Part shown: piece after piece, positions 9,541 to 19,435 of the stretch
Numbering within the stretch: position 1 is the first letter of the stretch
How the letters are laid out: the number at the start of each line of letters is the position of its first letter
From: a virus
Lineage: Duplodnaviria > Heunggongvirae > Uroviricota > Caudoviricetes
IMG/VR virus record: IMGVR_UViG_2737471824_000003
Reading direction: 5' to 3' (one strand)
DNA length: 20,534 bases
Position numbers and translations under genes: made by a program
Notes under the pieces: generated by a model
What the model was told of the DNA's origin: nothing
The model's database searches: none
Seen by the model: only the letters and a program-made list of their open reading frames with translations

Positions 9541-9931
9541 GAGAGTGGCGCTATGTGCCATTGCATGGTGCCGGGTGCCTCCCGGTGAATTCAGTACCAG
9601 CACCTGAATCCGCGATTATCCCATATACCTACTCGCTGATTGCCCCTCCGCACAGGGGGATTCACCATGCCAGTTTCTTTTAACAAACTCCCCGCAAACC
9701 AGACAACAGTCAACCGCCTGAATTGTGAAGTATTTAAAAATTTCTCCCGCTAACTGATACCCGGCTAACAGTCTGGCGTTTTCTTTTTCAGCAACGGGAA
9801 AGCAACAACCACCACACCCGCCACCAGCACACTGTCAGCCAGCACTGACATTATCCGGCTGCTGCAATGCCATTCACAAAAACAGTAAGCAATCACTTTT
9901 TACCGTAACAGGTGATAATCCAGATATGTAT

Positions 9932-13490: not shown

Positions 13491-13646
13491 TTACTCCTCA
13501 GGTTCGTAAGCTGTGAAGACAGCGACCTCCGTCTGGCCGGTTCGGATTCGTACCTCGCAGAGGTCTTTCCTCGTTACCAGTGCCGTCACTATGACGGTTA
13601 AACAGATGACGATCAGGGCGATTAACATCGCCTTTTGCTGCTTCAT
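13491..13646 (-). CDS. hokD: Hok/Gef-family type I toxin (HokD/RelF-like), 51 aa
   Basis: Translates to MKQQKAMLIALIVICLTVIVTALVTRKDLCEVRIRTGQTEVAVFTAYEPEE, a canonical Hok (TM helix plus conserved Cys, C-terminal periplasmic tail). Below the ORF-track size cutoff. Confidence 0.9.
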   Translation of the reverse strand: MKQQKAMLIALIVICLTVIVTALVTRKDLCEVRIRTGQTEVAVFTAYEPEE

Positions 13647-13904
13647 AGCCTGCTTCTCCTTGACCTTTCGGTCCGTAAGAGGCTAATCTCTATGTGTCGC
13701 ATAGATATGGCCTCAGATTAATGTTAAGCGTCTTGCAGGACGCGTAATGTTAACTGGGGCTTTTCTCTATCTGCCTTTTGGTGTTCATGCCTGAGACAGA
13801 TAGCCTCAAGCACCCGCAGTAATTCTACTTAACTAAGATTTCCCCGCAAACCGTTTTTGTCCGGCACAGTAAATATCCAACTAAACCAATGGCGTTCGCT
13901 GTAT

Positions 13905-14084
13905 TTACCGCCAGTATTCAATGCACATGACCGCCATGAACACCCCTAAAAAAAGGGCATTTATATATCCAAATATTAATATCAAAACATCAACTTTTTC
14001 TATATACCTTGCTGTGAAGATGATGGGCATACATGATACGAACAACCAGAACGCAACAAACAAAAACTGCAATGCGTTTTTCAT
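13905..14084 (-). CDS. small predicted two-helix membrane protein (59 aa from ATG 14084)
   Basis: ATG preceded by AGGAGG-aata. Product MKNALQFLFVAFWLFVSCMPIIFTARYIEKVDVLILIFGYINALFLGVFMAVMCIEYWR has two hydrophobic segments. Very AT-rich. Immediately upstream of the hok locus. Confidence 0.4.
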   Translation of the reverse strand: MKNALQFLFVAFWLFVSCMPIIFTARYIEKVDVLILIFGYINALFLGVFMAVMCIEYWR

Positions 14085-14313
14085 TATTCCTCCTACAATC
14101 AATGTGCAATTACATTTAAACACACCTCAATTTGGCCGGACATATAAATATCTAAACCAGAAAAAATCACTTACATAGCGTTACAAACTCTTTAGTCTAA
14201 ATATTCATCGTAAAACATTCCCCATACTTATCAGCCCGTTCTGCGCCAGGTAGCTCATTGCCTTATCTGGGAATCTGTAATCAGGTTTCCGGATGCTGGT
14301 GGATTTTCGCGTT

Positions 14314-14571
14314 TTAGTTGTTCATAAAAGTGCACAGCTTTAACCAGTTCTTCTGATGTAACCGGGACTGGCGGGGCAGTGAATAAGGCCTGAATTTCAT
14401 AGTTCGGCCTGTCGTTACAATCCTCTTTTTTCGGTACATATTTCCAGTCACCAGACCACTACTTCCCCTGAAAGTCCGTAACGCCTTTTTTTTCACGTAG
14501 CGATATCGCCATGCCACTGTTTTTGCTTGCCCCGCCGTTTCATGCCCTTCCTGATAATTAACCTCGCTCAT
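14314..14571 (-). CDS. basic small protein (85 aa in the 0 frame) containing an A_AAA_AAG slippery heptamer; a -1 shift would extend it to ~105 aa (stop at 14255-14257)
   Basis: ATG overlaps the stop of the upstream 58-aa gene (ATGA). In-frame heptamer A AAA AAG at 14425-14431 (minus-strand sense). The -1 frame is closed by TAG 11 codons upstream of the site and open for 56 codons downstream, with a more protein-like composition (..TSEELVKAVHFYEQLKRENPPASG..). Confidence 0.45.
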   Translation of the reverse strand: MSEVNYQEGHETAGQAKTVAWRYRYVKKKALRTFRGSSGLVTGNMYRKKRIVTTGRTMKFRPYSLPRQSRLHQKNWLKLCTFMNN

Positions 14572-19382: not shown

Positions 19383-19435
19383 TTTCTGGTGACGTTTGGC
19401 GGTATCAGTTTTACTCCGTGACTGCTCTGCCGCCC
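19383..19435 (+). ncRNA. dicF: DicF small RNA (antisense regulator of ftsZ and other targets), 53 nt
   Basis: Sequence TTTCTGGTGACGTTTGGCGGTATCAGTTTTACTCCGTGACTGCTCTGCCGCCC followed by a T-tract. Matches K-12 DicF as recalled; located between ydfC and dicB. Confidence 0.8.

Follow-up and report, generated by a model that had tools for sequence, protein, structure and literature searches.

Introduction

The –1 frameshift site of Escherichia coli dnaX joins the slippery heptamer A_AAA_AAG to a Shine-Dalgarno-like (SD-like) element and a downstream stem-loop. Given stimulators, few heptamers are as efficient in E. coli as A_AAA_AAG (PMC4066793; PMC5009743); in reporter assays, heptamers without stimulators give just 2–10 times the background of about 0.055% (PMC4066793). 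Some –1 slippage is expected at A_AAA_AAG as a physical property with the single tRNA-Lys of E. coli (PMC5009743), and a class of corrective frameshifting, acting on indels, is recognised (reviewed by Atkins et al., 2016; PMC5009743). Beside these systems stand the pseudogenes that the RefSeq annotation pipeline (PGAP) flags in the cryptic lambdoid prophages of E. coli.

Here, we analysed a window of 20,534 nucleotides (IMG/VR record IMGVR_UViG_2737471824_000003), which belongs to a lambdoid prophage of E. coli. An initial annotation had drawn attention to A_AAA_AAG in a small open reading frame (ORF) of this window, and had offered two readings of it: a dnaX-type programmed –1 frameshift, or a pseudogene inactivated by slippage. 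We conclude, with a probability of about 0.93, that the gene is a decayed prophage pseudogene and not a case of programmed frameshifting, its lesions being the growth of an A-run from A6 to A8, a TAG nonsense codon and deletions. Pseudogene status as such is already known: at exactly these coordinates (14571–14255, minus strand) the RefSeq (PGAP) annotation of E. coli FDAARGOS_536 has a pseudogene labelled ‘hypothetical protein; frameshifted; internal stop’. The same flag is found in nine other genomes, and all TAG-bearing alleles taken from RefSeq carry the words ‘frameshifted; internal stop’.

Results

The ATG-initiated ORF lies on the minus strand at 14571–14314, with its start codon at 14571–14569, and encodes 85 amino acids (aa). 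Recomputation of coordinates and phase agreed with the initial annotation: the AAAAAAG heptamer is located at 14431–14425 (minus strand) and is read CGA AAA AAG in the ATG frame, i.e., in the X_XXY_YYZ phase, a phase that is found in alleles with an A8 run only. Also as annotated, the –1 frame is shut ahead of the heptamer by TAG 14461–14459 and is open beyond it for 56 codons (EDCNDRPNYE...DSQIRQ), up to TGA 14257–14255. The product of a –1 slip at the heptamer, previously put at about 105 aa, is 105 aa by translation, and its hypothetical transframe junction peptide is ...GNMYRKKEDCNDRPNYEIQALF..., i.e., ...MYRKK-EDCNDRP.... The heptamer is not enriched in the window, where AAAAAAG occurs 9 times against an expectation of 5.8 ± 2.4, with 10 of 100 shuffles reaching 9.

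The same ORF also contains an A8 homopolymer (GTG AAA AAA AAG; 14493–14486, minus strand), 60 nt upstream from the heptamer. Relative to the A6 run of intact orthologues it has gained two nucleotides (alignments A1, A2, and A4; allele table), and it is the real frameshift lesion of the ORF, which the initial annotation had overlooked. When 171-aa proteins were compared with the window by tblastn, the matches fell into three frames, namely aa 1–28 at 14571–14488, aa 27–100 at 14491–14270, and aa 146–171 at 14285–14208. Measured against the syntenic intact 171-aa orthologue (tblastn, alignments A2 and A4, and the gene order of loci L090–L092), the whole remnant of the ancestral gene spans 14571–14205 on the minus strand and ends with the ancestral stop codon, TGA 14207–14205. 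Within it, the TAG at 14461–14459 (minus strand) is a nonsense codon of the ancestral frame, and intact copies have CAG, CCG, TCG, ATG, CTG, or GCG in its place. At the heptamer site, intact copies read CCG ACA AAA GAG (P-T-K-E) and the window reads, in the ancestral frame, CCG AAA AAA GAG (alignments A1, A2, and A4); the substitution of ACA by AAA at 14431–14429 (Thr47Lys) is what creates the heptamer. Compared with the 171-aa orthologue, the window copy has lost two internal segments, one of 90 nt and the other of about 59 nt (tblastn and alignments), and the junctions lie at 14297–14288 (minus strand; alignments A2 and A4). The 90-nt deletion is common to the window and to strains CE10 and W, and another deletion (55 nt when measured against CE10) brings TGA 14257–14255 into frame.

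Taken together, the A8/A6, TAG/sense, and ACA-to-AAA differences from intact copies show that the ‘–1 frame’ of the initial annotation is the ancestral coding frame. By the same alignments, the 85-aa ORF consists of 28 native codons followed by 57 out-of-frame codons, so that everything beyond codon 28 is a +2-shifted nonsense frame. Substitutions at G74, R80, and V85 were also considered as a signal of decay. This signal was withdrawn, since the variants of the window (E74, H80, and L85) are found elsewhere in the family, in P0013 and P0127.

A protein search returned 1013 single-frame homologues of 109–209 aa, and overall the intact relatives measure 104–209 aa, each in one frame. They include a 119-aa version in locus L003 and a syntenic 171-aa version, P0020, at L090:2501–3016, where the order of neighbours is as in the window (DUF977, DUF7167, a 58-aa gene, the phrog_660-type gene, hok, and DUF968). 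For the orthologue comparison, 80 IMG/VR loci were retrieved and tabulated. The frame was open throughout the first 91 codons in 86 loci (39 unique sequences), three of which fell outside the scoring pattern of the allele table. The 83 scorable intact copies all have A6 at the first run (interrupted as AAGAAA in one). At the TAG position they carry sense codons, and where the window has the heptamer they read ACAAAAG or ACCAAAG; the heptamer itself was present in none of the 83. Residue 47 is Thr in 114 of 114 scorable close homologues, and the block G40-D41-W42-K43-Y44, part of the motif GDWKYVP, is invariant in alignment A3. Across the 86 intact copies, the ancestral frame has a median dN/dS of 0.20 and a third-position divergence twice that of positions 1 and 2, which points to purifying selection on this frame. 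Alignment of orthologues had been proposed by the initial annotation as a way of deciding between its two readings, and it did recover intact single-frame versions with a different A-run length, among them the 104-aa allele P0127 (locus L099), which has the same 3′ end as the window copy.

Homology to protein families followed the same division. The intact 171-aa protein P0020 matches the phrog_660 profile end to end (aa 2–171, E = 1.2e-72), whereas the 85-aa ORF of the window gives a weak match over aa 2–31 only (E = 0.006), and its zero frame past codon 28 matched no protein family in the PHROG search. By these matches, the window copy would belong to phrog_660 by descent, not as an intact member. 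In an exhaustive HMMER search, three short modules (aa 15–70, 60–115, and 108–171) recurred in phage proteins of 59–389 aa. No Pfam or NCBIfam model was found for the intact family, PHROGs gave families of unknown function only, and a PDB sequence search returned only spurious low-complexity matches to designed proteins. An AlphaFold2 model built from a 34-sequence alignment had a mean pLDDT of 46.5 and a pTM of 0.34, too poor for a fold search.

We surveyed alleles in 99 loci plus the window, of which 97 sequences (96 loci and the window) were scorable. AAAAAAG at the heptamer site was confined to TAG-bearing alleles among these 97. The TAG-bearing alleles differ in the length of the first run, with A6 in six loci (e.g., CE10 and W), A7 in two, and A8 in three sequences including the window; for the two A7 alleles (strains NT1F25 and 13P460A), a sequencing error in the homopolymer is conceivable. 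Loci L087 and L088 are TAG alleles with further single-base deletions. Starting from the ATG, the reading frame stops at the TAG in A6 alleles and at a TGA ahead of the heptamer in A7 alleles, and the heptamer is reached in phase in A8 alleles only. Because the heptamer is already present in alleles that combine A6 with TAG (CE10 and W), it is older than the A8 insertion. The coexistence of A6, A7, and A8 alleles with further indels means, in turn, that the frame relationship that frameshifting needs is not conserved.

To place these alleles in the species at large, a 121-nt query across both A-runs was compared with 5,426 complete E. coli genomes and gave 1,403 matching records. At 99% identity or more there were 608, nearly all of them A8 in the rows sampled; another 599 had 95–99% identity and were largely A6 with TAG, and 196 had 90–95% identity and were intact types. 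The frequencies were estimated from bands of identity and from a spread sample of 60 rows; counting A8, A7, and A6 exactly by short BLAST queries was rejected, because such alleles would escape a search with a 28-nt seed and a low-complexity filter. The A8 allele is common on this measure, with about 600 of the 5,426 complete genomes at least 99% identical over the 121 nt. The locus is present in some 2,223 E. coli genomes, and an O25b:H4-ST131 genome has it. The A8 frequency fits equally well a cryptic prophage inherited clonally in successful lineages, and a selected state could look alike.

The P0127 allele (L099:1501–1815) lies in the same gene neighbourhood and is open in a single frame over 104 aa. 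Its 3′ half is near-identical to the window, including the ...ASGNLITDSQIRQ* end, so that its C-terminus is that of the window’s –1 frame, but it has no TAG (AAT CTG), reads ACAAAAG at the heptamer site, and shows neither net gain nor net loss at the first run. This allele was found on one contig only and is probably a recombinant, since its 5′ part resembles the intact alleles. Two other alleles illustrate the variety of the locus. P0149 reads YVPKKEDC in frame and then enters the same ...HQSRLHQKNWLKLCTFMNN tail by a different frameshift, and P0248 is a 59-aa allele in which an in-frame deletion has removed the whole damaged segment. The locus is strongly mosaic, and its decay has followed several independent routes.

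Stimulatory elements were sought on both sides of the heptamer. The arms of the weak stem described in the initial annotation (AGGCC...GGCCT) are present at 14410–14406 and 14390–14386 on the minus strand and could pair in a hairpin of 5 bp with a 15-nt loop, beginning 14 nt after the heptamer (14410–14386). By folding, however, this is not a stimulator: the 70 nt past the heptamer fold no better than shuffled sequence (–14.6 versus –13.3 ± 2.7 kcal/mol, z = –0.49). In the intact L003 copy, one arm is disrupted (AGACC...GGCGT). The 30 nt before the heptamer (TAGTGGTCTGGTGACTGGAAATATGTACCG) hold no SD-like motif of the GGAG/AGGA type 6–17 nt upstream, and Rfam at gathering thresholds gave no frameshift element and no family in the gene region. 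The AGGCC hairpin is not credible as a stimulator.

The genome of E. coli FDAARGOS_536 is 100% identical to the window over a 651-nt query around the gene. Its RefSeq annotation over the window span lists portal and terminase genes, lysis genes, the Q antiterminator, RusA, DUF968, and hokD/sok, followed by a replisome organizer, Cro/CI, and dicB. The pseudogene is flanked by hokD and by three small genes located after DUF977, and sits between the replication genes and hokD. On its upstream side, an intact 58-aa gene with a phrog_519 match (14744–14568, minus strand) overlaps it through the sequence ATGA, in which the TGA of the former overlaps the ATG of the latter, and the DUF7167 gene (14919–14737, minus strand) in turn overlaps the 58-aa gene. 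The DUF7167 gene, the 58-aa gene, and the pseudogene start at 14571 are thereby chained by overlapping stop and start codons over 14919–14568 on the minus strand, an arrangement that suggests translational coupling. DUF7167 has an internal stop in strains CE10 and W.

Directly downstream of the pseudogene is a complete hokD toxin gene (13646–13491, minus strand) with the sok antitoxin RNA (13815–13644, minus strand; Rfam, 106.7 bits). Between the pseudogene and sok/hokD, positions 13650–14200 form an AT-rich stretch (35–39% GC) without RefSeq annotation. It contains a hydrophobic 72-aa ORF (14123–13905, minus strand) with no PHROG match, and an 85-aa plus-strand ORF overlaps the latter; at about this position, the phage record ON470612 has a coding sequence (CDS) labelled ‘hornerin’. 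Most of this stretch is missing from the L090 locus, which has the intact 171-aa gene, and about 195 nt nearest hok align (about 13640–13834).

Other genes of the same prophage are also flagged as damaged in RefSeq: a Cro/CI-family regulator is frameshifted (17684–17441, minus strand), and a DUF1737 gene (8885–8700, minus strand) and a hypothetical CDS (9552–9677, plus strand) are truncated. This fits a decaying, cryptic prophage. Rfam additionally placed in the window IS009 (1576–1378, minus strand), the sRNA STnc100 (9699–9510, minus strand), two tRNAs (10648–10399, minus strand; tRNA-Arg and tRNA-Ile according to RefSeq), and the DicF antisense RNA (19384–19435, plus strand).

Discussion

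The disabling lesions found against intact homologues are a +2 change in the A-run, a TAG codon, and two deletions (90 nt and about 59 nt); they are accompanied by marks of relaxed constraint, i.e., the A6/A7/A8 alleles, the extra indels of L087 and L088, and a T47K substitution at an otherwise invariant residue. Once the window copy is repaired, its overall dN/dS against intact copies is still about 0.2, and the decay would therefore be recent. The order of events can be proposed from the distribution of the lesions. The change of a sense codon to TAG (14461–14459), the ACA-to-AAA change (Thr47Lys) that makes AAAAAAG, and the 90-nt 3′ deletion would have come early, since all three are common to CE10 and W, with a further 3′ deletion later. 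The last step would have been growth of the GTG-A6-G run to A7 and A8, most likely by replication slippage. The A8 run shifts the ATG frame by +2 into 57 meaningless codons, leaving the ancestral frame to persist as the open ‘–1 frame’, and it is only because of this upstream +2 shift that the heptamer stands in the X_XXY_YYZ phase. The initial annotation was thus right about the kind of event in its pseudogene alternative and misplaced the site; the inactivating slip lies not at the heptamer but at the A-run 60 nt upstream, together with a probably older TAG.

The remnant is probably still translated through its ATGA overlap with the upstream 58-aa gene, and if so, a small fraction of ribosomes may slip –1 at the heptamer incidentally. 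Nothing indicates that such slippage is selected or useful. A transframe product would replace residues 29–49 with out-of-frame sequence and would be without the invariant GDWKYVP motif. Transcriptional slippage on the A8 run was considered as a separate means of rescue and rejected: an A9 transcript restores the ancestral frame, which meets the TAG nine codons later.

The alternative that survives best, and which we still consider very improbable, is selected corrective frameshifting, in which the A8 run carries ribosomes past the TAG and the heptamer returns a minority of them to the ancestral frame, giving a useful 105-aa protein at a low level. The frame arithmetic works, as a +2 shift leads past the TAG and an in-phase heptamer leads back; the A8 allele is frequent, and corrective frameshifting of indels is an accepted category (PMC5009743). 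Against this, residues 29–49 become junk and the invariant block G40-D41-W42-K43-Y44 is lost, A7 and other indel variants coexist with A8, and no stimulators accompany the heptamer. Moreover, the heptamer is older than A8, as CE10 and W testify, and hence was not gained as compensation. It is just as improbable, in our estimate, that the A8 run and the in-phase heptamer are kept as a selected bypass of the TAG, by which a trickle of a 105-aa variant keeping the conserved C-terminal modules would have some function in the cryptic prophage. Were the corrective reading true, bacteria would offer here a natural case of two lesions rescued together by slippage of the ribosome; the evidence does not favour this.

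Programmed –1 frameshifting of the dnaX type, by which the 85-aa zero-frame product and the 105-aa transframe product would be made in a set ratio, has in its favour a heptamer in phase in the ATG frame, a –1 frame open for 56 codons, and the high efficiency that this heptamer reaches in E. coli with stimulators (PMC4066793; PMC5009743). However, the heptamer occurs in no intact orthologue, and sister alleles with A6 or A7 either terminate before it or read it out of phase. Neither did the surroundings of the heptamer yield structure beyond that of shuffled sequence, an upstream SD, or an Rfam frameshift element, and heptamers in such a setting reach 2–10 times a background of about 0.055% (PMC4066793). 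The initial annotation had proposed two products, of 85 aa and about 105 aa, from one gene. The zero frame has no homologues past codon 28; conservation of both the zero-frame and the transframe product was not seen, and the signs of purifying selection are on the ancestral frame only. We regard programmed frameshifting, the least expected outcome but for the two readings that follow, as effectively refuted by these comparative data.

A phase-variable (contingency) gene, switched on and off by changes between A6, A7, and A8, would fit the differing lengths of the run in alleles that are near-identical elsewhere. Wherever the run varies, however, the TAG is present too, such that no run length gives a full-length product, and intact alleles are uniformly A6, one of them interrupted as AAGAAA; TAG-free alleles with a variable run length were not seen among the 99 loci scanned. 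The chance that this reading is correct seems to us close to nil. The same can be said of an assembly or sequencing artefact in a gene that is really intact, for although homopolymer length errors are common in long-read assemblies, this reading is already refuted by the recurrence of A8 in hundreds of independent complete genomes and by additional lesions, the TAG and the deletions, that are independent of the run.

We therefore return to the decayed pseudogene as the preferred reading, and it holds a caution for the annotation of frameshift sites. When a real gene has recently suffered a frameshift, an efficient slippery heptamer downstream of the lesion will have just such a long open –1 frame after it, since the ‘alternative’ frame is none other than the former coding frame. 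Comparison with orthologues quickly settles the question of slippery site versus decay. Gene callers disagree at this locus, where one GenBank phage record (URC10046.1) lists the 85-aa ORF as a hypothetical protein and RefSeq calls a pseudogene.

Set beside the described systems, the locus shares with the –1 site of E. coli dnaX an identical heptamer, which the ATG frame of the window reads in the same phase. It differs in that it lacks an SD about 10 nt upstream and a stable hairpin 5–8 nt downstream, in that its heptamer is not conserved, and in that its zero-frame product is not a conserved protein. With corrective frameshifting as reviewed by Atkins et al., 2016 (PMC5009743), it has in common an indel and a nearby shift-prone site that could restore the frame for a minority of ribosomes; here, by contrast, evidence of selection is absent, the slippery site predates the indel, and the restored product is without the invariant motif. 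Among phrog_660 and the mosaic small ‘ead/Ea22-like’-associated proteins of lambdoid phages, the repaired ancestral frame matches the family, whereas the window copy, unlike the members, is disrupted. The closest likeness is to the PGAP-flagged pseudogenes of cryptic lambdoid prophages of E. coli, which are alike in having intact homologues, in combining a homopolymer indel with a nonsense codon and deletions, and in having close relatives that bear further, different lesions, as at this locus. Nothing material differs from these pseudogenes, and the one curiosity is that a +2 shift puts a pre-existing AAAAAAG into the slippery phase.
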